A stretch of DNA of 63,918 bases, counting the filler, from Atractiella rhizophila (Eukaryota): the NCBI GenBank assembly GCA_021432655.1. It is 8 parts of 7 records of this genome, joined end to end, with 100 filler letters (N's around TTAATTAATTAA, not from the genome) between each part and the next. Parts side by side here need not be neighbours in the genome. Positions count along the whole stretch, not along the records: positions 1 to 12,491 come from MU271500.1; 7 more parts are not named here. The stretch is one strand, 5' to 3'. Below, in pieces: positions 1-62,491 of this stretch. The position numbers were made by a program, and so were the translations under genes. Numbering within the stretch: position 1 is the stretch's first letter; every line of letters begins with the position of its first letter. The notes beneath the pieces are model-generated. The model saw only the letters and a program-made list of their open reading frames with translations, had not been told where the DNA came from and ran no database searches.

Positions 1-3000
1 CAGTTCGGGGCCAGGTTCAGCCGCTGGCGGATTTGCACCTGCATTCCCTTCTGCCGGTGCTGGTACGGGATTCGCAGGACGCGGAGCCCTGCGAGGACGG
101 TTCCTGGCAGCTGCTCGATCCGCATCTGCATTCGGAAAGATAATTTGACGGGCTTGGTAGAGAAAGTACAGAAAAGCCAAGCCGAGAATGACAAATCGTT
201 TCGTAGGTCTGAATGTCAAAGTGAGCGAGGTCGTTAACAAAGTGGAGGTATACTCACGAGACATGCCGACCAAACAGAAGGAACAAGACCCCTAGTTTGG
301 CACATAGAAGGAACAACCGGTAAAGGATCTGAACAACGACAGTGAGGTTGATGATGATGGCAACCCCTCGTCTTCCGCCCGCTCCGGCGCCTCCCAAACC
401 TCCTGCTCGAACGTCGACGGCAGGGCCACCAAGTCCGATTCCGAGCCCATCCAGGATGTCTTGATGTCGTCCTAACGGACGCTGAAGGAGTCGAGTATTT
501 GCAAGTTGCATGAGGCGTGCCCTTTGTTGTGTGGTTTCGACATTGTGACTGATGGATACGATGGCTGAAATGTTGGTGAGGACGTGATAGACGGCTTCGG
601 CGCGGAAGACGCTATCTGGCGTCCGTGGGATGAGGCGTGGATGTGCATACTCGTTCACGAGGAGGTAGGGTAGATTGCTACTCTCCACCTCAGCCAGTTT
701 TCATGTGGGAGAACAAAACATACTCAACATAAACGACCTTCCAGGTCACTCGCCCGTTGTTGCTCATCGTCAAGGATGTATATTCGGCTTGTTTCAATTT
801 CAATACTTGTTTCTCAATCCATTCCCATACGTCTATATCTCGTAGTAGCTGCTCAACCTGAGCTTTTACGTCCTTAGGGATATCAAACTTTGCTCTTTCC
901 CCTGTCCCTCATTATAAGTCGCAAAATTTGGGAAGAAACCATCCTCGTACCAAAAGCCGTCGCCGACTCTGCACTGAAGGGGAACGAAGTCACATTAGCG
1001 ACAGTATCCCATGACGATTCCCAGCCATCTCTCCGGTTCCCGCCCTTCTCATTCTTCAGCCAACTCTTATAAACGCCACTTGCACGATTTAATTGCTGAA
1101 GAAGGGTGTACCGTTGCGCGTTCGACAGCTTCCTCATGAACTGCAAAAACTTTGTATAGTCGGGCAGATCTGGTTTTGGGCGAGATGGCGGTTGCACTGC
1201 TGTCGCAGCTGCTGAGGATGCCGTTGCTGTTAGGACGGGGTCGGAGGACGTTCGGTTCATACGGCCCATTGGCGGAGCAAGTGGTGTGAAGCGGTTTGGA
1301 GGAGAGGTGCTAGGAGTAAACACAGCAGTGGAACGCGCCGTTTCTGGAGGTTGAGAAGCGGATCGAAACGAAGACGGAGACCTCGAAAGAGGGACTGGAC
1401 GACTCAAAGGGAGGCGAAGGCGTTGTCGCAGCGAAGACGGTTCTCGAGGATCACTCGGAATGGTGCTCGTAGAACCGTTAGCAGTAGTGCCATTTGCCTC
1501 TGGTTTGACGTTATTCCTAACATCGGGATCCGAAATCTCTCGCATTGAAGGCTTGTTCGGATCAAAGTCCATCCAAGAGGAAAAGACGGGTAGAGATCCG
1601 TTGGTCGAAGCAGCACTGGTGGTCCCGTTGCTACTCGCCCGCTCTATTTTGTTCTTCAAAATATCATCACCCCCCGATTGGGTCGTATTAGAAGGCGAAA
1701 AGGCAGTCTTTTCCTGAGGAGGAAGAGCAGACAACGCAGGCTTAGGGTTCGGGGGAGGAACAAAGGCTGGAGCTGTGCGAGTCGCAGTGACATCCAGCAG
1801 AAGAGCCAGTTTTGCAGGCTCGACGGACTTCCAGGTCACCTTCGAATTAGACGGGTGAATTAAAATCGGCACTGGTCGCGACTGGCAGTAAAGAATCAGT
1901 ATCCCAATTCAAACGAGAGATATAAGCATGATATCGAGAAAATAAGACCGACAACGCGTCCAAATAGCTTCGGTCAGGGTAAAAAGGATCAAGGATAACG
2001 TCCATGTTTTACTCTTCCGTCGATGTATGACATACATAGAGAAGGTAGACAACTTCATATCAAAACTAGCCAAGAAGGCAATGAAAACAATGGTGGATTT
2101 ACTATCCCTTTTCAAAACGCACCCAGAAGACTGTTAAGAACGACTGAATGCTCCTTCCCTCAATGTTTCTCTGCATTCTCGTCTCTCGTCTCATCACAAA
2201 TTTTGACGTAGAGAACAGAATGCCGGCCTGCAATCACGCAACTAGTTCACCTCCCGACACAAGGCTATTCCTTACTGAGAAATTGCCAAGATCCCCTCTG
2301 AACTCAATCATCATACCAAATGACGGTGCTGTTATATTGCTACTGCTCCCCTTCTATTCTAAATGGAACGGCAATTTTCGATGATGCTCGTTGACAACGG
2401 TGTTATACACCAGCGAGACAAAGAGGTGGAGAGCTCGAATTGAGCTGTTTCCGCTCTCCTTTAGATTGAAGCACTGAAAGGAGCTCCACATCTCCGGGAA
2501 AAACATTTGGTCACCCCTTTACAATTATTGTCCACTCATCATGCATGAATACATCAACTCGCAGACACGACTCTCGGCCCATCCATCATACTTAGAACAC
2601 GTAAAGAGGATAAGTAGCAAGGGGGTGAAACGGTGCTCCACATCTTCTATCCTACCTCAGTCACTGCTCTTCTCAACGTTAGAAGAGCAACATTCCCTCC
2701 ATTTACACAGCACTGACAGCGAAAATAAACAAAAAGACTGAGACTCACCTCGCTTCCAGCCATCAACAACCCCAACAATTCATCATCAACAGGGACTCTG
2801 CCAGCCATAACAAAGTACACCTCCTGCTCATTCTCCAACCCTCCCACTTCCTCTTTAACCCACCTCTTCAGCTCTCCGACACACGCATCCTTCTCCACCT
2901 CCACCATTCTCTCCTTCCCATCCAAACACAACTTCACCGTCACTTTATCCGGTATTGTAGTGTCCATTCTCCTCGTCGCAAGAAAAGCCTCCTCCATCCC

Positions 3001-3318
3001 TTCGCCCGGATACCACACCTCCACTTCCCACGCCCCATCCCTCTCCCTCTCTCCCTCTCCCTCTCCCCCAAAAGTATTCCAAAACGCGTCCCTCTCCGGC
3101 CACCCCAGCAGCTCCCAAACGTCTCTCCTCTCCTCTTCCTCAGTAACACACCTTCCCGCGCGCAATGCGAAGGAAGCCTCGGGGGGTAGAGGGATGGATG
3201 TGCGCAGGGAGGAGAGGGAGGTGGTAGGTGGTAGGCGTGTGGTCGTCTTGGGTGAAGGGGGAGAGGGAGGGGGTGGGAAGTGGGTCAGGTGGAGGGTGAT
3301 GGGGATGGGGATGGACAT
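1..3318 (-). CDS. Ubiquitin-like-domain membrane protein, Usa1/HERP-like (ERAD scaffold); multi-exon, 3' end runs off the window
   Basis: ATG at 3318. UBL-like segment VTVKLCLDG..VGELKRWV..FVMAGRVPVDDELL splices in phase 0 (GT 2748, AG 1882) to SRPVPILIHP. A Pro/Ser-rich middle follows, then KFDIPK...WKVVYV|NLPYLL and hydrophobic TM segments (LFLLCAKLGVLFLLFGRHVS, KRFVILGLAFLYFLYQ). One apparent +1 frameshift at the C4 run 899-902. Confidence 0.6.
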
Positions 3319-4593
3319 GGTTGCACTCGAAGGGAGCGCTGAGTGGATAACCGAGAGTCGTTGTTTTACGTGGCCCTTGCTGACTGTAGTGTCATTGTCC
3401 TTAAGATTACGGTCAACTAACTTACTACGCGTTGTGGAACTAAATGCCAAAGTAGATCTAGGGTATATACATGGAAGAGAGGCTACTAGAAGGGAAGAGA
3501 AAAGGAACATGAACTGATAGAGTAATTGGTTGCTTGGTCGTGATAAAGATAAAGATGGAACGGTACGCTTCCTCCATGATCTCGGCGTTGGTATCTAGTA
3601 CAACTGCTGGAGGTCTCTCTGATTGAATCCTTCCCTAAAATGTGTCTACAAACAGTATGTTTGAATCATAAGGTGCAGATAGACCTTAGTAAGTGTACTT
3701 CATCAAAAAAAGAAAAAGCAAAAAGAATGAAATCCCGCGTTATAGAAGCCCTATTTTCACACCTTCTTTCTGCTCTAGAATATGTATCGATTGAATCATC
3801 TAGTCGCAGTTTGAAACTGAAACAGCATGCTCCTTTTGCAAATCGCACTTTGTTTGGCTTGCCATCCCATCGTAGAGGTGTCGAAAATTGGTTGGTGTGT
3901 CAACCTTTTTATGGCAAAGCAATAACCCAGTAACTCTTAATCTGACAAGAGATCACACTCCAATATTTTATCTCAGTTTTCCTACCCTGGTTTCTACTTT
4001 CGTGCCTTCGAGTAGGATCGATGTCTGTGAATCTTTCAGATAATAGAGACATTAGCCAACACGAAAGGTTAACTGGAAAACAAAGTTAGCAGAGTCTATT
4101 CAATTTGAATGCGAAGTCGTGCCAAAACACGTTGCACTTTTGTCGACCTTCGCGCTTTTCACCATCTGGCAGCCAGTAAATCATTCGGAAGATGAAAGTT
4201 GTCTTGAGCTGACTTTGGGATGACAAGAAATCAAACCAAACAGGGCATGTGCGTCGACCTGTGTTCTGGAAGGAAAAGAAAATGCCTCCCAGAACTTTGT
4301 GGACGAACCCACAGCTTGCTCAAGAAACTGTCAAAATCAATTGTTATCAATTTAGATATCGGTTCGTACGTAGTGTACAACTGCTCCACTTCCTGTCAAG
4401 TTCTCAATATCGCGATCCCTTCGTCCGTAATTTCTGCGAATCCGCGTCCTATGCTGGAAAACGTCCAGATGGACGAAGTATCATTCTACTGATGTTATAA
4501 AGGCTGTAACGGTCGAACATCCATCTTCAATCAACACTACCCCATACGAGAGCAACACAGATTAAACAGGATTCGAACCTGCGGATAACTACG

Positions 4594-7500
4594 ATGCCGC
4601 TTTCTGATCTGGAAATATACCAGAAGACGATGTACGACTCTCGTCATCATTTCCCCCTCTTTAATCCAACGTATCCGTTGGATCCGTTTGGCTCAATAAG
4701 AAGGATACAACCTTACGGAGAATGTGAGATTGGTGATTTCGGATACTGCCGAGATGGCCAATTCTGGGTGTCACGAAATGTTCGCGAATTGTTGGGTCCT
4801 GGTGCCCCAGAGCTTGGTCTGGTCGTTCTGGACACTGCCTGCTGCTGTCCAGGCTCCCCCATATATAAGGGTACAAAGTCATCTACGAATTTTACAGCAA
4901 ATGTCACTGCCCCCATGTACGTCCTTCTGCTCGATCATGAAGCATTTCAGGCTCAGTAGTAGCGTAGTGTTCCCGCCCCAACTTTCGCGGCTCAAATTGC
5001 AAGTCATTCTGTACATTCGGCTTTCCTCGTCACGAAAACAAGATGCCCCTCGTTTCCAAGTTGCAAAGGTGCCTCTAGCAGTGGCCTACTTCAAGCGATA
5101 TTACGAGCAAGTCCTAAGAGAAGATTTGGATAACGACTTCCGCTGTGCCAACGACAGAGATATCTGTATGGTAATCGGAGTTGTGAAGGCATATGACTGG
5201 CTTCACGCAACTTTTGCCGAGAGCGGTCAATCTTTTCATCTCACATTTGGATTACAACCTGTAGGGTTCGACATAGGACGTGATTGTGGAAACATTTCTG
5301 GTGCTCGTCTGCATCGTGGGTCCACGTCTCCATGAGCCCGCGTAAGCTGCCCGCCGTCATTTATGCTTTGTCCCATTTTTAAGCACCATTTTCAGGAGAT
5401 GGCATTTTGTCCACAGCTGCATATCGGGTCGGTGATCAAACATTGTTTGTCAGTCGAATCAAGCTTAGGTGGCACAAAGTTCTGCCTTTAAAGACTGAAG
5501 CTCGAGGCTCCAGGCCACCATCCCCCTCCCAACGTGAAGATGAATCTGTTGAGCCAATCTTCTGTGAGCTTACTGGACAGTGAAAAGGTTGGTAACTTTC
5601 TAACATGGTTCAACAGTGGTTGTGATTGAATTGGTGTTGTTTGGCAGAGTCCTGATCCCTTGGATATTCTTCTCGAAGCCATGTTGATGGTGATATCATC
5701 TTACATTCTGACGGGAACTTTGTCGCTCACGCCTGTGACAGTTACGGCCAAGCAACAAAGTCTCTATTTCTTCTGACATTCATCTCGGTCTCTTGTGTAA
5801 AGCGGTAGGTATCCTTATTCCTTTATTCCATCGCTGTCAGTATATACCAAATTGCTGAGAATCCGCATAGTCAGAATGGACCTTTGATCCCGATGCATGG
5901 ACTGTTCAGAAAGCGACCGACCTATTGGAGGCTCGCCTAAACTGCATTAAGGAAGACGAAGATGGTAATTGTCTGCTATTCGGCTGCTCAGTCCTGACAT
6001 CTAGTGCGTAGTGGTGACGTTGGACTTCCCTGACGATTGGTACCATCCCTCGTTTGGTGCAGCGCTCGTGCACAAAAATGAGGATGACTTATCAGCAAGC
6101 ATTATCATGTCTAGCTTTGCAAGTCTTGATATCTCTCAGCTGAAAACAACAAAAGGAAAAGGAGACAAAAACTCATCTTTAGAGAGTGATGTGCGATATG
6201 CAGCATGGAACAATTTTCTGGAGGCGACGTTCTTCCATGCTCAGATGAGAGATCCACAAGGCAAAGTGCACTACACTCACAACACCGAAAAAATCAGGCA
6301 GATGGAGAAAGCGTTGGCATGTTTCAAGAAGGCAAAGAAACGATTTCTGCGGGAGGGCCGGAGAAACTCCATTCGCAGCATAAGGACGGTCCTCCAACTT
6401 CCCAGTCCGATGGAGGAAGTGTTGAACTATTTTGAAGAGGGGAAAAAGCTCTATCTTACGGTGGAAGATTGGCAGGGGCAAGCCAACTTCATCCACAGCA
6501 TAGGGATGGTCCACCTTTATTGCGGTCAGATGGAGGAAGCGTTGAAATGTTTTGAAGAGGCGAAGGTGCTTTTTCAGATGGCGGACGATTGGCAGGGGGG
6601 AACCAACTGCCTCTACAGCATAGGGACGGTCCACCGACTTCGCGGTCAGATGGAGGTAGCGATGAAATTTTTTTGAAGAGGCGAAGGCGCTCTATCAGAG
6701 GGCGGGCGATTGGCAGGGGCAAGGCAACTGCATCCACAGCATAGGGATGGCCCACCGACTTCGCGGTCCGATGGAGGAAGCGTTGGAATGTTTTGAAGAG
6801 GCGAAGGAGCTCTATCTGAGGGTGGAAGATCGGCAGGAGCAAGCCAACTGCATCCACAGCATAGGGATGGTCCACCTTTTTTGCGGTCAGATGGAGGAAG
6901 CGTTGAAATGTTTTGAAGAGGCGAAGGTGCTCTATCGGAGGGCGAAAGATAGGCAGGGGCAAGCCAACTGCATCCACAGCATAGGGACGTTCCACCGACT
7001 TCGCGGTCAGATGGAGGTAGCGATGAAATTTTTTGAAGAGGCGAAGGCGCTCTATCAGATGGCGGACGATTGGCAGGGGCGAGCCAACTGCATGCACAGC
7101 TTAGGGACGGTCCACCAACTTCGCGGTCAGATGGAGGAAGCGTTGAAATGTTTTGAAGAGGCGAAGGGGCTCTATCGGAGGGCGAACGACCGGCAGGGGG
7201 AAGCCAACTGCAACCACAGCATAGGGACGGTCCACCAACTTCGCGGTCAGATGGAGGAAGCGTTGAAATGTTTTGAAGAGGCGAAGGGGCTCTATCGGAG
7301 GGCGAACGACCGGCAGGGGGAAGCCAACTGCAACCACAGCATAGGGACGGTCCCACCAACTTCGCGGTCAGATGGAGGAAGCGTTGAAATGTTTTGAAGA
7401 GGTGAAGGGGCTCTATCAGAGGGAGGGCGATTGGCAGAGGCGAGCCAACTGCATCCACAGCATAGGGACGGTCCACCAACTTCGCGGTCAGATGGAGGAA

Positions 7501-8100
7501 GCGTTGAAATGTTTTGAAGAGGTGAAGGGGCTCTATCAGAGGGAGGGCGATTGGCAGAGGCGAGCCAACTGCATCCACAGCATAGGGACGGTCCACCAAC
7601 TTCGCGGTCAGATGGAGGAAGCGTTGAAATGTTTTGAAGAGGCGAAGGGGCTCTATCAGATGGCGGATGATTGGCAGGGGCGAGCCCACTGCATCCACAG
7701 CATAGGGACGGTCCACCAACTTCGCGGTCAGATGGAGGAAGCGTTGAAATGTTTTGAAGAGGCAAAGGAGCTCTATCTGGCGTTGGGAAACCTTGAACTT
7801 AAAGGTCAACTCAATTGCCTCGCTGGCATAAGCTCAATTTACTCTCAAGACCCCGAGACCATGTCCAAGGCGATCCAGGTTTGTGAGGAAGCGGTCAATT
7901 TGAGTAAAGGAGCTGGGGACTACGACGAAGGTCGCAGCAGAAAGAACCTGGCTCAACTCCTCTTCCAATCTTCACAGTTCGCCCTCGCAAGGGAGGAACT
8001 TACGCGCGCCCGTCAGCTTTACGAAAATAGTTCTGCCACCGCCGATGTCAAGGACTGTGATGATCTACTACACAAAATTTCGAAGGCGGAATGCGAGTGA
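4594..8100 (+). CDS. Putative gasdermin-like N-terminal domain fused to a C-terminal TPR array (multi-exon, several frame breaks)
   Basis: Exon motifs in order: FPLFNP..CEIGDFGYCRDGQF; SAFLVTK; DICMVIGVVKAYDWLHATF; DQTLFVSRIKLR; DPLDILLEAML; KVSISSD; then about 12 x 40-aa TPR units and a capping helix ending at TGA 8100. Plausible GT-AG introns at about 4917-4967, 5342-5395, 5588-5647, 5690-5741, 5804-5870 and 5965-6011. The TPR part is clear; the gasdermin assignment is motif-based inference. Confidence 0.65.
6409..7770 (+). repeat. Coding tandem array of 120-bp (40-aa) TPR repeats: 11 full units plus a 12th partial unit, with a degenerate 108-bp unit upstream from about 6301
   Basis: GATGGAGG(A/T)AG recurs at about 6409, 6529, 6649, 6770, 6890, 7010, 7130, 7250, 7371, 7491, 7611 and 7731. 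Consensus MEEALKCFEEAKxLYxxxxDxQGxANCIHSIGTVHxLRGQ. Confidence 0.97.
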
Positions 8101-8673: not shown

Positions 8674-10111
8674 TCAAAAGTCTTCTACTGATATCTTTTC
8701 CTTCTCGGTATCATAACCCCATCCTTGGACGTCCCAATAACCCATAGAATTGACGAGCGAGATGAGAGGAAAGGCGAGCCAGAGGCTCCATTCCCTGTTC
8801 CCAGTATCAACAGTGTGTCGCAAAATAGCTTTTAGAATGAAACAGATAAAGGGGTTGGGAAAAAGAACGATAGATGAACGAACGACAGACCTGAACTTTC
8901 CAATCCACCATCCATCGTCTTTCCTCCCTCGTCCTTGACTCTCAGCATGCTTGATAAACCCATCTACTCGAGGAACGCGCCGAGCTACGTATTCACGTTC
9001 CCAGATTTTAGGGATGGAGGAGGGAGAGATGGGTTTATGGGAGGTGGTGATAGCGTGAAGGATGGAAGAGACGAGGGAAGCATCTTCCGCTCCCATGCCT
9101 ACGCCTTGAGCTGCGAACGGTGGGAGGGCGTGAGCAGCATCCTTCCTCCACGTCAGCAATGTTAGGACGAAAAGGAAGGGAAGATGAGACGTACGCCTAC
9201 TAGCACTATTCGTCCGTTAGGAGAGTACCACTGGCCTTTATGTTCCTTATCGGAGAGACGAAAGACAGGCCAGTAATAAATCTTCTCCGTTTTCCGTATC
9301 ACCTCCTCTATCGGCGCCGGGAAGTCCTTGTATGCCTCCAACAGTTCCTTCCTCACCTCTTCGCCGTCTGGTGCGGCTTCGTCAGGAGAAGGAGGTGTGG
9401 GTGGCGCGCGAGAGGAGAACCAGTGAACCTGAGAGTCGTCAGCACGCGAATAGGATACAGAGAAGAGTCCNNNNNNNNNNNNNNNNNNNNNNNNNNNNNN
9501 NNNNNNNNNNNNNNNNNNNNNNNNNNNNNNNNNNNNNNNNNNNNNNNNNNNNNNNNNNNNNNNNNNNNNNNNNNNNNNNNNNNNNNNNNNNNNNNNNNNN
9601 NNNNNNNNNNNNNNNNNNNNNNNNNNNNNNNNNNNNNNNNNNNNNNNNNNNNNNNNNNNNNNNNNNNNNNNNNNNNNNNNNNNNNNNNNNNNNNNNNNNN
9701 NNNNNNNNNNNNNNNNNNNNNNNNNNNNNNNNNNNNNNNNNNNNNNNNNNNNNNNNNNNNNNNNNNNNNNNNNNNNNNGTCCTCCATCAAATCTCTTCTC
9801 CCTACACGCATTCCGACGCAGCCGTCAGCTGGCCACGAGTAGAAAAATTCTCCCACCCTCTCTCCGCGTTCGTTTTGGAAGAGAACCATTGGAGTTTTCC
9901 CTCCATATCGTCTCGGGTCGCAACCGACATGAGAGAGCAGTCGAACAGCGTTAGGGGAGAGGTTCACGGCTCCTCCGATGGTGCGAAGGGACGCGTAGAC
10001 CTCGTAGATGGTGATGTGTATTTGTTCTGGAGAAGAAGAGAACTTGGAAAGGAGGAAGTGAGCGGTGAGTGGACCAATGATCCCGCAACCGAAGATGGCA
10101 ATTTCCGTCAT
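8674..10111 (-). CDS. FAD-dependent monooxygenase (salicylate hydroxylase/UbiH-like), interrupted by assembly gap 9471-9778
   Basis: N-terminal IAIFGCGIIG Rossmann motif, GGAVNLSPNA, and GRIVLVG|DAAHALPPFAAQGVGMGAEDA (GD motif). Confidence 0.9.
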
Positions 10112-12491: not shown

Positions 12492-12591
12492 NNNNNNNNN
12501 NNNNNNNNNNNNNNNNNNNNNNNNNNNNNNNNNNNTTAATTAATTAANNNNNNNNNNNNNNNNNNNNNNNNNNNNNNNNNNNNNNNNNNNN
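12492..12591. other. Artificial contig-joining linker
   Basis: 100 nt of N with a central TTAATTAATTAA (stop codons in all six frames). Confidence 0.97.
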
Positions 12592-21278: not shown

Positions 21279-22086
21279 GGGGAGTGGAGAATTGAGTAGG
21301 AAGAGTAGTGGAAAGAGTAGTTGGGGTCACGGTCGAGGACGAGGAGGTGATTGTTGACTGATCACTGGAGCACGAACAATAGAAGANNNNNNNNNNNNNN
21401 NNNNNNNNNNNGATTGTTGACTGATCACTGCAGCACGAACAATAGAAAGAGACCCAACCATCTCAGATGAAAGTGCTATAGCGGAATAATACAGTGATGG
21501 GTTCGATGCAGCTCGTTCGTTTTTTTTTTGAGATATAAGTAATTTGATTGTTTCGTTCGTCGATTCCTTCATTCGAGAGTCTTTTCCTTAGCTTAGTCTA
21601 ATAGGTACACACTCAGAATTCGTATTTGCATTGTAACTGCTGTATCATACTATCGTTACCCATGCAGTTCCAAGTAATGCATCGTTTCCCAACTCGGAGA
21701 CTAGCGGGCCTGCAATCCGTTCAAGCAGCGTCAAGGGAGAAACTGTATCACGTGCCCTACTCAGACCAGACTCGAGACCAGACTCGAGACTAGGGGGGGT
21801 TGGACGTGCTAGCTGTGGACGGGGATGAGGATAGGTTTAGACTACGGTAGTTGCACGTTCGATGTAGCGGACGACGATAGGGCTGTACATACAAGCAACC
21901 AGATAAGATGAAGTACTCCTCTGAGGAGAACGATAGAATTTTATACATGAGTGAAAAGGCAAGTAGCAGCATATCCGTAAAAGTAAGACGAGCGAACCGA
22001 GACCCAAGGCATAGTAATACAAGATCCGAAAGTAAACAAGAAGACAAACAGAGAGAAACTATGGGAGAGGAGGGCAGGGCAGTAAA

Positions 22087-22822: not shown

Positions 22823-22922
22823 NNNNNNNNNNNNNNNNNNNNNNNNNNNNNNNNNNNNNNNNNNNNTTAATTAATTAANNNNNNNNNNNNNNNNNNNNNN
22901 NNNNNNNNNNNNNNNNNNNNNN
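22823..22922. other. Artificial contig-joining linker
   Basis: N-TTAATTAATTAA-N, 100 nt. Confidence 0.97.
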
Positions 22923-24314: not shown

Positions 24315-27300
24315 TCACTTTCTTCTCCACGGCAACCATCCTCTTCTTGGCTGTGAGGTTAGTGTAGGGAGGGACGATGGCGCAGTTCCTGCCTCATCAC
24401 TTTCCACAATTTTTTGTGGCTCTTGAAGTGTTGGATCTACAATGGCTTCCTTAAGTTCCTTGACTGACGTCGGATTGTAGTGGAGCAAGTGAACATCAGG
24501 TTCCCCCTTCGTTGGATCCTCGGAGACCATTTTCTTGTCTGTAGAGACAAAGGTATTGAGAGGGGATGTGCTTCGACGACCGACAGATGACTGCGTTTGG
24601 GTGGTCCCTAAATCGTTCAGGTCCCTGGAATCTTGGTGGAAGTTATCCGCGTCGCCTGCTGATGGCGATAGCGAGGGTTGCGTCAAAACTGGGGATTCGC
24701 CAGTCAGATTTGAGGATGGCAGATGAATGTCGGTATTGAGAGCGGAACCATCCACCTGGTCTGTGATAGAGACGTAGACGTCTTTGTCTTCCGTTGGTGA
24801 TGGCATCGCAACTTCAGCTTCTTCCCACATGATAGGCCCAAGGTTGGCTGAGTGCGCCTTCTCGAGATCGGCGGGAGCGACTGAGACGTCGTTCTCAAAC
24901 GGAGTCCCATCAATCGTCTCAGGCGGAGGCAACACCTGCAAGCGCGGTAAGCACGATGAGGCTGACGCTGGAGGAAGCATCAAACCTCAATCTTTCCTTC
25001 CCTCCATATGTCCATTCCCACAATTTTCTTCAGAACTGCGAGTACTTCATCTTCCACCCAGCTCTCCAGCCAGTCCTCTTCCCCACCAAGCCCAACAGCG
25101 TTCCCCTCCTCCGTCTCATTCGCCGGCCCAAGCTCCTTTACATGAAATCCCTGTACTAGTTCATCAACATTCACAAGGGAACATCGAGGAACTAAGAATA
25201 AGTAAGGAGGACGATCAGGGTTAATTCTTGAGGGAATCGCGATTTTGACGTAGAAGCAGTGGGATCTGGTAATTCGCATGTTTGGTTCGTACCGAATGAT
25301 AACTTGCTCGGAACTCGGCGGCTGGACAACTGCTTGTTTGATATGCTCATCCTCCTGATTCTGACGTGATGCTCCATCTTCGCCGAGTAAACCGTTAGAA
25401 GTGGCCTGGCGACTCAGCACTGGAGCTTCCGAAGGAATGTGCACGACTTCAATCAGTGGAGTAGTTACTGGTGCTGCAGGGGCAGAAGCGCCGTGGTGAT
25501 GCAAGCGAGGTCGTATGAAGCTGGAGACCGATTTGACGAGTGTAGGAAAGCTAGGCCTTTCTGGGAATGGACGCGCCAACTCGCTTGCTAGAGCCTCTCC
25601 ATCGGTAGTGTTCTCTTTAGACAGCAATTTAGCCGCAGTGGAAGTGTTTCCCCGCTTGAACTTTGGCCGTTTGCGTGGTCGGGTATCTTCATCATTGACT
25701 GAATCCGAATCTTCTTCTGCTTGGGTCGGTTTCCACGTATCATCTCCCTTCGCTTTTCGTCGCCTTTTCCCCCTAGCATTGACTATTTTATCCTCCACAG
25801 GTAGCTCGTCTACTTTTTTGAGTTTTTTCGTTTTGGCTGCTCGTGCCTCCTCTGCTTCATCCGTCGAGCTCTCCTCTCCAGCTTCAGGTCGATATGTCAG
25901 ATCCTGCCTTTTAGGTCGACCTTTGCGTTTGACCTGCGGTCCCTTATTTGAACCTGGGGATGATGCTTCTATAGCCGATTCTTCCTGATCACCTTGCCGA
26001 GGTTGGGATACGCTAGAGTTAGAGGAGGAAGCTTTCGACGGTGGAACGTCAGCGCGGCTAGCAGAAGGTGCTGGTGAAGGTACGTTATTTGATTGGTCCT
26101 CCTCGGTCTTCGCTTTCACGGATTTTCTTCCATGATGAGGAACAGCTCTGCTCTTTCGACCTCTCGAAGCTCGTGCTAAACATCAATCAGAACTATCTTC
26201 GTCAGCACGAGCAAACACATACACGTGCTAGCCGTTTTTCTCTTTAACGATATCTGAGCCTCGCCCGTTTCATCGTCGACCAAGTCAGCAATCTGTCCTT
26301 TCTTGCCTCGACTTGGTATTTTCGTCACCGCCGCGGCAACTGTGGAGGTGGAGGATGTGGATGGAGAGCCAGGGGCAACATCTACAAGCAAAGACGGCTG
26401 TGGCGTGGAAGGATTGCTCGCGTCTTTTTTTGCCTGAGACCTCGTCATACGACCAGGACTGACCGGAAGGAGTTCGTTATGCGTGTCATGAAAAACACTT
26501 TTTCGAGAGCGTCTGGAGGTCTTCGCTGTAGGACTTAGTGCATTCGTAGTAACTGAGGTGATGGATTCCAGTGATCTTTCCACAATGACAGATGTGTTTG
26601 TTGAACCAGGTAAAGGTTGGACTGAAGACAAATCCTCCTTCGGAACTCCCTCCACGGCTTCAGGAGTCGAAGGAGCTTCAACGACCAACTGAACCTCCGG
26701 CAGCTCAACACATGAAGGAGTAGGATCCTTAATGACGCTCGATCGTGGGGATTTGGTAGCCAGCAGATTTGATGGGGCGAGTGCAGGTTCAGCGCCTGCA
26801 GCAACAACTACCACAGGATGCGGTAGATCACCCGTGATTGCTGGTAAAGTACCCTCGAAATCGACATCCATCGCTAAACCAGAACCCGTACTAGTTGAGA
26901 TTTCAACGACTGGTAAGGGCAACTCATCGGTCGTGTGTCGAGAGGAGTTCTCCGCCGCCTCTGCTTCTGCAGCAATCGGGAGACCAGATGAAGCTGGGAC
27001 TTCGACAATGGGTCGAGGTACATCCTCAGTGGTCAAAAGAGGTGTCCGCAGTCCCTGGTCAGCATCCAACCCAGATGGAAGGGCAACCTCAACAAAAGGT
27101 TGAGCTGGATCATGAGTCGTGAGTTTCGAAGATAGTTCTTCCTCTCCAGCGCCAGGCAGTCCCGTTCTAACTGCTCTCGCCGCAGGTACCTCTCCTGCCT
27201 CTACTTCGCCATTGGCCCCTTCTTCATACTCTACTACAGCTGATTGTGAACTGATAAGCTCGACAACAGGTTGAGGAACTTCCTCCGTAATGACAGATAC

Positions 27301-30300
27301 GATGGTTTCATCGGGCTGTGTTGTCGAATCAGCGGTAGAGGGCGTAGTCAAAGGTTCATGCAACCCGCTTTCAACATCTTGTCGAATGGATTGTTCGATG
27401 GCAGGCGTAGGTTGTTTCAGATTACCGTTCGCGCCGGCGATTCCTTCTTCGCTGGCTGAATACTGGTTCGGCGCTTGGTCTTCCTTCCCTTCCTGGACCA
27501 AAGGAACATCTTGGGATCTCTCCGTTGCCTCAGGGACCGACAGAGTTGGAGTACGCAACTGTTCAGGTAGCAAATCTGGCGTGAGGTCGACATTTGAACC
27601 GTCAGCAATAGTCGAGGCACGCTCTTTATCCCCTCCCTCCGCTTCATCTCCAACCTCTTCCACCACGTCTTGAACAATAACGGTTTCATCCTGTTCCTCT
27701 TGAACAGGAGGACGGTCTTCGAAAGAAGGCGAGAGTGAGATACGTCGTAGATCGGTACTGCGTTTGACAGGAGAAGGGGTGGTCGGTTCATCCACCTCCA
27801 GCTCCAAGTGTGAGTGTGAGACTTTGACTGGGGTGGTCGGTTCCTCCTCAGGTGCAAGGTGAGACGGCGTGACGAATGCTTCCTCTTCCAATAGCTGCAA
27901 AGGACCGGAGATTCGTTCTTCCACTTTCCCCATCTCCACATCTCCCTCTTCCCCTCCCGACTCTACATTCGGCCTGAACCCTTCTCTAGCATCCGTATCT
28001 GCGCCGATGCCAGCTGAAGCATCAATGTCCGCGAACTGGCCGTAGGTCATCCCTCCCGACGTGTGCACCAAAGAGAAGTCCTCAACCTCCACTGAAAATT
28101 CAGCCATTCCAGCTGTATCGAGGGAATTTATGTAATCCTCCACCTCTTGATTAAACCGGCTAGTATCCATCACATCATACCTTGCTGTTGCAGTGACAGT
28201 GTCGTCGGTAGGTCGAACTTCGGAGGAGGCTTGGTTTCCCAGGCTGTCAATAATCTTCTGGATATCGGCAGGGCTCATGCCCGTTGCCGGATCGTCAAAC
28301 GAGGAGGGAAGCGAATCAATGAACTCGTCCAAATTCGGTACATGGAGCATGTCCAGATCCTGGAGATTCGTCTCCATCCCCTCGTTACCCTCCTGTTATA
28401 TGTAATTAGCCTCTTTTTCTTCAAATAAAATCAATTGATGCATGTGGAAAGACGAACCTGCGCGGCTTGAAGAAGCAACTGCATCCCGTCCACTTCTTCT
28501 CCAGCCTCTATTCGCGTCTCCTCAACCTCCATCTCTCCCTCTCGCCTACACTCCTCGTCGTCCCTCCTATTCTTCTCTCTCTCTAACTCCTCCAACTCCC
28601 TCTCCAACTGCTCCATCCCCTCCTCCAAACTCAACTCCTCCTCACTAGTGCTCCTCCACCTAATCCCATTGATCTTCACTCTCGATCCATCCTCTCCCTC
28701 GTCCCAATCCTCCAATTCGTCCTCCTCCCCACTCTCACCGGCATCTTCTCCTCCTTCAACAGCAGCTCTCGCCCTTCTCTCAAATTCCTCTAAAATCAAA
28801 CGTTGCCGATCCATATCCTCCATATCCTCCATCGTGAACTGACTACTTTGTCCATGCGTAGAATACCTCACTAGGCGAGTGAGATCGATCGTCTCCTCCT
28901 CATCCTCATCATCGTCTTCTTCCTCCTCGTCAGCATCCGCCACACTGTCCATCACCAGGACAGCTTCCTCCTCCTCCTCTTCCACATCTTCTTCCTCCAC
29001 TTCCTCTTCTCTAGGTTTAGAAGCTCGCGGAGATTTGGAAGTCAATTGAGATCGCGACGGCGACTGTCGTGGGCTGACCTGTGCCCGTGACGGTGACAAC
29101 TGGGAGGCAGGAGGAGCGACCCATTTCTCCTTGACAGAATAAGGAATCTTGCTCCCTCTCCAAATCTCCAAACTGGCCTCCGTACCCTCACCCTCCGTGC
29201 CCTCTCCCCCTTCTTCCTCCTCCTCCACCTCCGATCCAGACACGACATAATCCTCCTCCTGCGATTCTTCATACCTTTCCAATCTCTTTCGTTTCTGATA
29301 ACTCGAAGCGGAATAATGTTTCTCGACCCTAGCATCCATCTCCAACCTCCTCCCTACTCCCTCACCAATCCTTCCTTCAAATTCATCTCCAATCTCCTCC
29401 ATCTCATCCGCTGTCGTCGCGTCCTCCAAAAACTCTACCTCCGCTCCTCCCACCCGCTTCATGACCACCTTCTCTCTCTTCCTCCTCTTCCTTTCAGAGC
29501 GAGGTGGTCGAATTGGTTGAGATTGATCGGAAGAGGGAGATGAACCGTCGATGGAAAGTATCTCGTCATCATCATTTCCTGCATCAGCCACCTCAGCTGT
29601 AGAGTCTTCTTCGGTGCGAAGACGGAGTGGAGGAGGCGACAGAGTCTCTGTCGGTATTTTTCGAGGCGATACCTTATGTGGGCTCTCGATCTCAACTGGT
29701 GGAAGGACGTCTTCATCGATTGGAGTTGTAGGTTGCTCCGCACTATGCCATTGATTGTCAACGACACACTCTCTATAATGAAATGACACGCACTTATTTT
29801 CTTCTCCTGTCATGACAGGAGTCTGGATGAGGTCTAACTCGTCCTCTTCTTCTCCTGAGCCATCCTGCATACTTAGTTCTTCTTTTAGAAGCGCTGACAC
29901 TGGGGCCTTGACGCCAGTTCCATTGATTTGATGATCTTCTTCCACTTGGACCCTACGATGCACGATTTAACCTAACCGACTTCTACACAAGAAACGAGAA
30001 CAAGCGTACCTCTCATCTTCTCGTTCAACATGTACCAGTCCACCGTGATCATTCAACAAACGAGCCTTCTTCCTCTCATACACCTCAACCGATATTTCGT
30101 GCTCCTCTTGCTCCTCCCCTAGTCGTCTCTTCTTCCTCCCTTCGACCATTCCACCACTCGGCGACTCGACCTGGATCGCAGGTGTGATGGGAGAAGCTTC
30201 AACAGAGGACGAGAGTGACTTCCTCCCTCCCAAGCTGAATCGAAAGAACGGAGACTGCGCCACAACACCTCCACTCTTCCTAACGGAGGACAAAGTCGCC

Positions 30301-32015: not shown

Positions 32016-32115
32016 NNNNNNNNNNNNNNNNNNNNNNNNNNNNNNNNNNNNNNNNNNNNTTAATTAATTAANNNNNNNNNNNNNNNNNNNNNNNNNNNNN
32101 NNNNNNNNNNNNNNN
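32016..32115. other. Artificial contig-joining linker
   Basis: N-TTAATTAATTAA-N, 100 nt. Confidence 0.97.
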
Positions 32116-47004: not shown

Positions 47005-47104
47005 NNNNNNNNNNNNNNNNNNNNNNNNNNNNNNNNNNNNNNNNNNNNTTAATTAATTAANNNNNNNNNNNNNNNNNNNNNNNNNNNNNNNNNNNNNNNN
47101 NNNN
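47005..47104. other. Artificial contig-joining linker
   Basis: N-TTAATTAATTAA-N, 100 nt. Confidence 0.97.
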
Positions 47105-51170: not shown

Positions 51171-51270
51171 NNNNNNNNNNNNNNNNNNNNNNNNNNNNNN
51201 NNNNNNNNNNNNNNTTAATTAATTAANNNNNNNNNNNNNNNNNNNNNNNNNNNNNNNNNNNNNNNNNNNN
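51171..51270. other. Artificial contig-joining linker
   Basis: N-TTAATTAATTAA-N, 100 nt. Confidence 0.97.
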
Positions 51271-59959: not shown

Positions 59960-60059
59960 NNNNNNNNNNNNNNNNNNNNNNNNNNNNNNNNNNNNNNNNN
60001 NNNTTAATTAATTAANNNNNNNNNNNNNNNNNNNNNNNNNNNNNNNNNNNNNNNNNNNN
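59960..60059. other. Artificial contig-joining linker
   Basis: N-TTAATTAATTAA-N, 100 nt. Confidence 0.97.
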
Positions 60060-62391: not shown

Positions 62392-62491
62392 NNNNNNNNN
62401 NNNNNNNNNNNNNNNNNNNNNNNNNNNNNNNNNNNTTAATTAATTAANNNNNNNNNNNNNNNNNNNNNNNNNNNNNNNNNNNNNNNNNNNN
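62392..62491. other. Artificial contig-joining linker
   Basis: N-TTAATTAATTAA-N, 100 nt. Confidence 0.97.

Follow-up and report, generated by a model that had tools for sequence, protein, structure and literature searches.

We identified a single transcribed gene of seven exons at positions 4594-8100 (+) of a 63,918-nucleotide stretch of DNA from the fungus Atractiella rhizophila (GenBank assembly GCA_021432655.1), the whole of which is hereafter called the window. On one chain, the gene encodes an N-terminal domain (N-domain), a Ser/Pro-rich linker, a small helical module and a long array of tetratricopeptide repeats (TPRs), and it contains neither a nucleotide-binding oligomerization domain (NOD) nor a protease. 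Our best overall explanation, which we hold tentatively and at slightly less than an even chance, is a single-chain sensor-executioner gene whose N-domain is most likely a very divergent pore former of the gasdermin type.

The gene model was based on GT..AG splice sites, collinearity with A. rhizophila paralogues and RNA contigs. Contigs from X3, a sequence run whose type is not on record and whose contigs contain splice joints, skip exactly 4917-4967 (51 nt, GT..AG) and so join exons 1 and 2, and an X3 contig that skips 5965-6011 (47 nt, GT..AG) joins exon 6 to the TPR-carrying exon. The intron at 5588-5647 (60 nt, GT..AG, with a CTAAC branch site) was supported by an RNA contig from X4, a root metatranscriptome run; the joint itself was given as running from 5577 to 5646 with seven intervening letters, which we read as 5588-5647 given a one-base deletion in that strain. 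Half of the six introns were thus confirmed by contigs, among them the one that leads into the TPR exon, while 5342-5395, 5690-5741 and 5805-5870 were placed by splice signals and homology only. Every exon piece aligned in order to the paralogues P0005, P0006, P0008 and P0009. The sequence-only reading had joined separately reported open reading frames (ORFs) across introns into one protein, and the contig joints, the collinear paralogues and the open corrected frame bear this out; all of the motifs that it quoted were found in place in open frames of 4594-8100 (+). Within exon 3, one X4 contig skips a further 65 nt (5448-5514, GT..AG), which would remove the conserved GDQTLF strand and break the frame, and a second X4 contig reads unspliced across 5453-5543. 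The skip may reflect minor or aberrant splicing, or the contig may come from another organism.

Keeping the gene in frame required the removal of six single bases, not one or two (Table 1). With all six dropped, the coding sequence comprises 3,171 nt and 1,056 codons without a single internal stop, and the frame is open from 4594 to 8097. Across 1,961 compared bases, 13 indels were counted, and all 12 that were listed were bases left out relative to the window. Four of the six extra bases were absent from DNA or RNA contigs of other isolates: base 5035 was left out in X1, X2 and X3 contigs, all X1/X2 contigs covering the respective sites were without base 5318 and short of one C at 5337-5339, and at both 5337/5339 and 5574/5578 each of two X1/X2 alleles was without one base. 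After removal, the reading equals the paralogues in length residue for residue (K-Q-D-A-P-R-F against K-S-N-P-L-R-F, and HEPR-D-G against HEPR-E-G in P0005), and what sets the two TPR units of 121 nt apart from sister units of 120 nt is a single additional homopolymer letter, a T in one and a C in the other. Five of the six breaks are located in homopolymer runs. Because the indels share one direction, lie mostly in homopolymers and show a two-allele pattern, the breaks are probably single-base insertion errors of the assembly, the gene being intact in the organism; the errors possibly arose from the merging of haplotypes.

Two readings would undo this gene model. The window copy might be a decaying pseudogene allele in which all six insertions are real, with a working gene only in another haplotype or isolate. 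The deposited copy is indeed broken six times, the public protein model was built on those breaks, and the contig comparison covered the four breaks that lie outside the TPRs. The compared contigs also match the window at 90-99% and have many substitutions relative to it in common, which points to another haplotype or isolate, so a truly broken allele keeps some probability. Against decay speak the uniform direction and homopolymer context of the indels, the absence of the base from both X1/X2 alleles at two places, which looks like a merged-haplotype consensus, and the lack of stops or other decay, apart from the frame breaks, in 3.2 kb; we consider a pseudogene improbable. The other reading divides the locus in two, giving a TPR protein of its own and a short protein with the N-domain, which the public 284-aa model would represent. 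This model, P0013 (a cluster mate of P0001), maps letter for letter to 4594-4917, 4952-5314 (in another frame) and 5419-5580; some 30 of its residues (4952-5041) are read in the wrong frame, and it terminates at a stop at 5581 that the extra base near 5578 creates. P0013 is a frame-hopping truncation of the 1,056-aa gene, and the allelic public model P0001 (121 aa) reads on into intron 1. With exon 6 joined to the TPR exon in an X3 contig through a joint from 5963 to 6011, paralogues that continue through the same helical module into C-terminal domains, and a corrected frame that stays open to 8097, a pair of genes is very improbable.

The C-terminal half of the protein is a conserved repeat array. 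A tandem array with a period of 120 nt was detected at 6365-7777 (11.8 copies, 89% matches), corresponding to twelve 40-aa units and a degenerate cap. Pfam placed it among the TPRs, with matches to TPR_12 (E values of 3e-56 and 3e-43; 187.8, 146.3 and 38.2 bits against a cut-off of 30.1) and TPR_10 (87.5 bits against a cut-off of 27.5). Among the 45 pairs formed by units 2-11, we counted 540 non-synonymous and 49 synonymous differences, giving a pN/pS ratio of 2.67 for ten units of one allele of one gene. These differences were concentrated in about 10 of the 40 columns (7, 24, 27-30, 32, 34, 35 and 39), and 15 columns were invariant. In the parts of Dyrka et al. 2014 available to us (PMC4986451), the TPR, ankyrin (ANK) and WD arrays of fungal NOD-like receptors (NLRs) are described as highly conserved internally with variation focused on few positions, and the window array shows the same feature. 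The earlier description of about 12 highly conserved, NLR-style TPRs therefore stands, and judged from the repeat sequences the units resemble immune sensors in both their conservation and their non-synonymous bias.

Between and around these parts, we found neither a nucleotide-binding module nor a protease, in agreement with what had been read from the sequence. No Walker A motif (G....GK[ST]) occurs in the corrected protein, and no NACHT/NB-ARC or protease family of Pfam matched within the gene, where only TPR families matched 6005-8097; five N-terminal pieces matched no Pfam family, and the sixth gave a sub-threshold chance match only. No signal peptide was evident by eye. No protease had been recognised in the flanking genes either, and peptidase families (including S8, CHAT and C14) were detected neither among 107 ORFs of at least 110 aa across the window (E<=1e-4) nor among 48 ORFs within 1-12.9 kb (E<=0.01; 33 ORFs of 70-109 aa and 15 rescans of ORFs from the first set).

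Support for a gasdermin-type N-domain came from two kinds of comparison. In an ESM-Atlas feature search, residues 25-330 of P0008 retrieved 30 unnamed clusters, three of which were shown, with scores of 0.96-0.97, lengths of 276-348 aa and mostly basidiomycete members. Two gasdermin families, which come from different kingdoms, were closest among the named clusters, PF26164 Bact_GSDM at 0.85 (140 of 256 features) and PF04598 Gasdermin at 0.81 (121 of 256), both below 0.9, in a range classed as chance or distant, so that they serve as leads only. For profile comparison, bacterial gasdermins were collected with the PADLOC model PDLC02986 (bGSDM), which matched 3 of 401 Bacteroidota genomes, and a metagenome scan added three loci; five of these sequences, two of them seeds obtained with that model, formed alignment A6, and a sixth, L215, was left out on account of internal stops. 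Examples of the collected gasdermins are L213:1393-2184(-) and L214:1498-2196(+). The L213 gasdermin lies directly downstream of a 485-aa gene (2205-3662, -) whose C-terminus appears caspase-/CHAT-like by eye, the usual two-gene arrangement. Aligning the family with A6 in hhalign gave a single 21-column block that paired family EKNLCMITGVIKSQDWLHAVF with bGSDM NSELFVINSVVKSSDISITIS, mid-domain in both. Its P values were 0.068, 0.079 and, with a trimmed alignment, 0.035, both profiles being shallow (Neff about 2); its score of 21.2 compares with 13.5 +/- 2.7 in a column-shuffle null, and 2 of 150 shuffles reached it. When the bGSDM hidden Markov model (HMM) was run with hmmsearch, the same region was the top match in four of five family members, with 0, 1, 5 and 24 of 100 shuffles reaching the score. 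Greedy extension of the hhalign block was collinear, pairing GDFGY..P..PL with the N-terminal GY..P..PL of bGSDM and GDQTLFISRI with its last core strand, albeit without statistical support, and an alignment of four columns in global mode carried no information. The two strands paired here match the two regions in which fungal and mammalian gasdermins are conserved.

Other results weigh against this assignment or are silent on it. The named Atlas matches fall in the chance-or-distant range, the hhalign probability was below 2% in all three runs, and the hmmsearch scores were about 0 bits, with no match for P0008. Neither PF04598 (E<=1; nine window pieces and eight paralogues) nor PADLOC including bGSDM (E<=10; four paralogues) gave a match, and three sequence searches of the PDB returned no gasdermin. 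The only PDB matches, PsaQ (E 0.095) and crotoxin chain A (E 3.5), both fall in the linker and were set aside as irrelevant. AlphaFold2 gave unusable models for P0006 (15-row alignment; mean predicted local distance difference test, pLDDT, 40.6) and for the P0008 core (12-row alignment; mean pLDDT 36.9), so no fold comparison followed; a complex prediction of the P0008 core with its helical module scored 0.01, which is no evidence either way. Finally, no protease gene was found among the window ORFs scanned, though about 80% of known fungal gasdermins adjoin one according to the portion of PMC8851545 that we consulted. Other attempts to enlarge the bacterial set were unproductive. At E<=0.5, PF04598 matched 42 of the 401 genomes, no match reached the cut-off, and its recurrent matches of about 400 aa were rejected, the ORFs at two of four being read by eye as aminotransferases. 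A search for bacterial gasdermins through CHAT and Peptidase_C14 neighbours found none, although these routes led to the PADLOC 'caspase' model PDLC02987, whose neighbouring accession, PDLC02986, is bGSDM; viral scans, plasmid tblastn searches and 45 more genomes added nothing to the bGSDM profile.

The N-domain belongs to a family that, by sequence, we found in A. rhizophila only. Exon 1, searched exhaustively with HMMER against 1.84 billion representatives, returned seven proteins at E<=1e-3: P0001 (99% identical), three true relatives (P0004-P0006), all from A. rhizophila, and three artefacts. The latter, P0002, P0003 and P0007, consist of repeats or low-complexity sequence and were rejected as relatives, P0002 because it was blank with the family HMM and the other two by eye. 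Word-index searches with P0005 and P0006 returned three and five proteins, respectively, all named Atractiella rhizophila, and P0001 and P0013 are NCBI proteins of this species, a member of the Pucciniomycotina. No further relatives were obtained with exon 1 in a word-index search on the 'longer' setting (67 candidates, none significant) or against the ESM Atlas (no usable match), with the family alignment in a metagenome scan (377 pattern matches, no relatives), or with the family HMM against the 401 Bacteroidota genomes (19 matches at E<=1, the best at 0.042, all noise). At the level of sequence, the proposal of a widespread basidiomycete family was not upheld, as the searches with exon 1, P0005 and P0006 gave true relatives in A. 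rhizophila alone; the pointer to Basidiomycota comes from the language-model look-alikes in unnamed Atlas clusters.

The A. rhizophila paralogues have the N-domain and/or the linker and helical module in common and diverge in their C-termini. Those of P0009 and P0011 are RNase III-like (PF14622; 21.6 and 27.1 bits against a cut-off of 35), P0005 and P0010 share a C-terminal region without a Pfam match, and P0012 carries another region, also without one. As judged from these sequences, the family is modular, with C-terminal heads swapped among TPR, RNase III-like, beta-rich and other domains. Compared with the RNase III signature, the acidic residues of the RNase III-like domain look partly replaced, and the domain may bind RNA without cutting it. 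The C-terminal half of P0012 contains a His...Cys motif pair that may resemble PPPDE-type cysteine peptidases, for which Pfam gave no match. For P0006 and P0011 alike, the longest contig listed measures 145,873 bp, so the two may lie on one contig and may be one split gene or a tandem pair.

The distribution and architecture of the family bear on the main competing explanation, namely that the fusion is real but its N-domain is a lineage-specific, non-gasdermin module that forms no pores. The N-domain and helical module would then serve targeting, regulation or oligomerisation, the variable C-termini would be the working or adaptor parts, and the TPR version would be a scaffold or adaptor. A domain that no gasdermin model or solved structure matches, that yields unusable structural models, that is confined by sequence to one species and that lacks a partner protease in the ORFs scanned fits this explanation, and the enzyme-like paralogue C-termini (RNase III-like, below the Pfam cut-off) also fit a constant N-module carrying variable effectors. 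It accounts less readily for both nearest named Atlas clusters being gasdermin families, for the best bacterial-gasdermin profile match falling on a collinear mid-domain strand and beating 148 of 150 shuffles, and for a TPR array that is conserved and biased towards non-synonymous change in the manner typical of immune sensors. We regard a non-gasdermin module as a serious possibility, although we would sooner expect it to be wrong than right. For the N-domain itself, a gasdermin fold has roughly an even chance, and the label is plausible but unproven. Of the sensor-pore fusion put forward in the sequence-only reading, the single chain without a NOD or protease between N-domain and TPRs held, and the gasdermin identity, for which Pfam, PADLOC and the PDB gave no match, is suggestive only.

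In mammalian gasdermins, an N-terminal pore domain is followed by a linker and a helical repressor domain. By analogy, the window protein may have the same order of parts, with a beta-rich N-domain, a flexible linker and a helical module; it differs in having no known caspase-type partner and in carrying a long sensor array after the helical module. Bacterial gasdermins (PDLC02986) share a similar domain size and, as the best profile match, a collinear strand motif (L-x-h-I-T/N-G/S-V-h-K-S), but they are 230-300 aa proteins that are inhibited by a short tail and encoded next to a protease, and they show no significant overall similarity to the window N-domain (probability below 2%). Fungal gasdermins, as described in the sections of PMC8851545 and PMC12881547 that we consulted, are separate proteins of about 280 aa, the TPR, ANK or WD repeats, sometimes with a NOD, belonging to the S8 or CHAT protease that is encoded alongside and cleaves the gasdermin; among 1,884 of them, 63% adjoin an S8 protease gene and 19% a CHAT gene. 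Like HET-Q1/HET-Q2 of Podospora and RCD-1 of Neurospora (Clave et al. 2022; PMC8851545, in part), the window gene couples a domain of about 260 aa, a putative pore-forming size, to TPR-type repeats such as those of HET-Q2-like proteases, and by analogy a cell-death role in non-self recognition is plausible for it too. In contrast to those systems, it carries the repeats on one chain with this domain, scans within and around the gene detected no protease, and gasdermin membership of its N-domain is putative. Fungal NLRs, so far as they are covered by the portion of Dyrka et al. 2014 that we saw (PMC4986451), likewise combine an N-terminal putative effector with near-identical C-terminal repeats that vary at few positions, whereas the window gene is without NACHT, NB-ARC or Walker A, has a 40-aa unit and belongs to the Pucciniomycotina, a group without NLRs in that survey. 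No description of a gasdermin fused directly to TPR, ANK or WD repeats was found in the literature as far as it was accessible to us, and the supplementary architecture tables of PMC8851545 might hold cases.

Under the sensor-executioner explanation, the TPR array would be the ligand-binding sensor, its units differing almost solely at a few non-synonymous positions, and the N-domain, most likely a gasdermin-type pore former that has diverged strongly, would act as the executioner. The helical module after the Ser/Pro linker would keep the N-domain inactive until ligand binding to the repeats, or cleavage of the linker by an unlinked protease, releases it; the released N-domain would oligomerise in the membrane and cause cell death. 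Paralogues would retain the N-domain and helical module and exchange the C-terminal head for an RNase III-like, beta-rich or another domain, and this retention with swapped heads fits a family of single-chain sensor-executioner proteins. A more specific version holds that the gene encodes a protease-independent, NOD-less receptor, in which a gasdermin pore is shut by its own helical module and opened by a non-self ligand on hypervariable TPRs, within a small family with exchangeable heads. In this full form we consider the proposal unlikely. If it were true, the RNase III-like head might bind double-stranded RNA.

The features of the gene, the corrected protein and the window are collected in Table 1. 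The window consists of intron-rich fungal DNA, and the neighbours of the gene have housekeeping functions (NAT10/TmcA, an ER-vesicle transporter, SDE2 and a PAK-type kinase). Downstream of the TPR gene, a 308-base run of N interrupts an FAD-monooxygenase-like gene; the runs of N represent gaps or withheld stretches. At 26179-29966 (-), open frames of 739 and 511 aa matched no Pfam family, the latter being acidic, low-complexity and rich in Glu, Asp and Ser, and GC skew was strong (-0.305) at 28-30 kb.

Table 1. Coordinates of the gene and window features (window positions) and layout of the corrected protein (residues)
Feature	Position	Strand	Description
Exon 1	4594-4916	+	Start codon, then the opening part of the N-domain with the IYQKTMYD helix motif and the GDFGY hairpin; ORF; aligns to P0004-P0006 and P0009
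Exon 2	4968-5341	+	N-domain core with CMVIGVVKAYDW strand motif; three extra bases; collinear with paralogues
Exon 3	5396-5587	+	Last conserved N-domain strand (VGDQTLFVSRI), then Ser/Pro-rich linker (SRPPSPS); one extra base at 5574-5578; paralogue alignment
Exon 4	5648-5689	+	Part of helical module
Exon 5	5742-5804	+	Part of helical module
Exon 6	5871-5964	+	Part of helical module
Exon 7	6012-8100	+	End of helical module, spacer, TPRs, stop codon
Helical module region (exons 4-6 and start of exon 7)	5648-6040	+	DPLDILLEAML, VSISSD, WTVQKA, VTLDFP; kept by all paralogues whatever the C-terminus
Spacer, about 110 aa	6041-6375	+	No P-loop; merges into degenerate TPR-like helices; TPR families alone match 6005-6676
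Twelve 120-nt (40-aa) TPR units	6376-7817	+	Two units of 121 nt; tandem-repeat and Pfam evidence
C-terminal degenerate TPR cap and stop	7818-8100	+	ORF 7345-8100; TPR_14, TPR_9 and ANAPC3 stretches at ORF residues ~197-231
Extra bases	5035; 5318; one of 5337-5339 (C); one of 5574-5578; T7 run 6664-6670; CCC 7351-7353		Removed in the corrected frame
Corrected protein	~1,056 aa		
N-domain	residues ~1-262		GDFGY at 47, CMVIGVVKAYDW at 174, GDQTLFV at 244
Ser/Pro linker	after residue ~262		SRPPSPS at 270
Helical module, ~75 aa	residues ~296-370		DPLDILLEAML at 298, VTLDFP at 363
Spacer	residues ~370-483		
TPR units	residues 484-963		Twelve 40-aa units
Cap	to residue 1056		Degenerate TPRs
Runs of N	12492-12591, 22823-22922, 32016-32115, 47005-47104, 51171-51270, 59960-60059, 62392-62491		Each two 44-base runs 12 bases apart
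Runs of N	9471-9778; 21387-21411		308 bases; 25 bases

The known fungal, bacterial and animal gasdermin pathways depend, to our knowledge, on no fewer than two proteins, one being the pore former and the other a sensor or protease. If the proposed reading is correct, an executioner-sized domain and NLR-style hypervariable TPRs on one chain, without a NOD or protease, would make the most compact such pathway, and the gene would allow a direct test of whether ligand binding to the repeats alone releases a death domain. Because the public model shows the gene as a 284-aa fragment that hops between frames, other fusions of this kind may go unnoticed where assemblies carry insertion errors. Such switches would also represent innate immunity in the Pucciniomycotina, where no NLRs were found in the survey cited above. 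Even with a non-gasdermin N-domain, the family is a hitherto uncharacterised module whose C-terminal heads can be exchanged, from a lineage of plant-root endophytes in which NLRs are reported to be absent.

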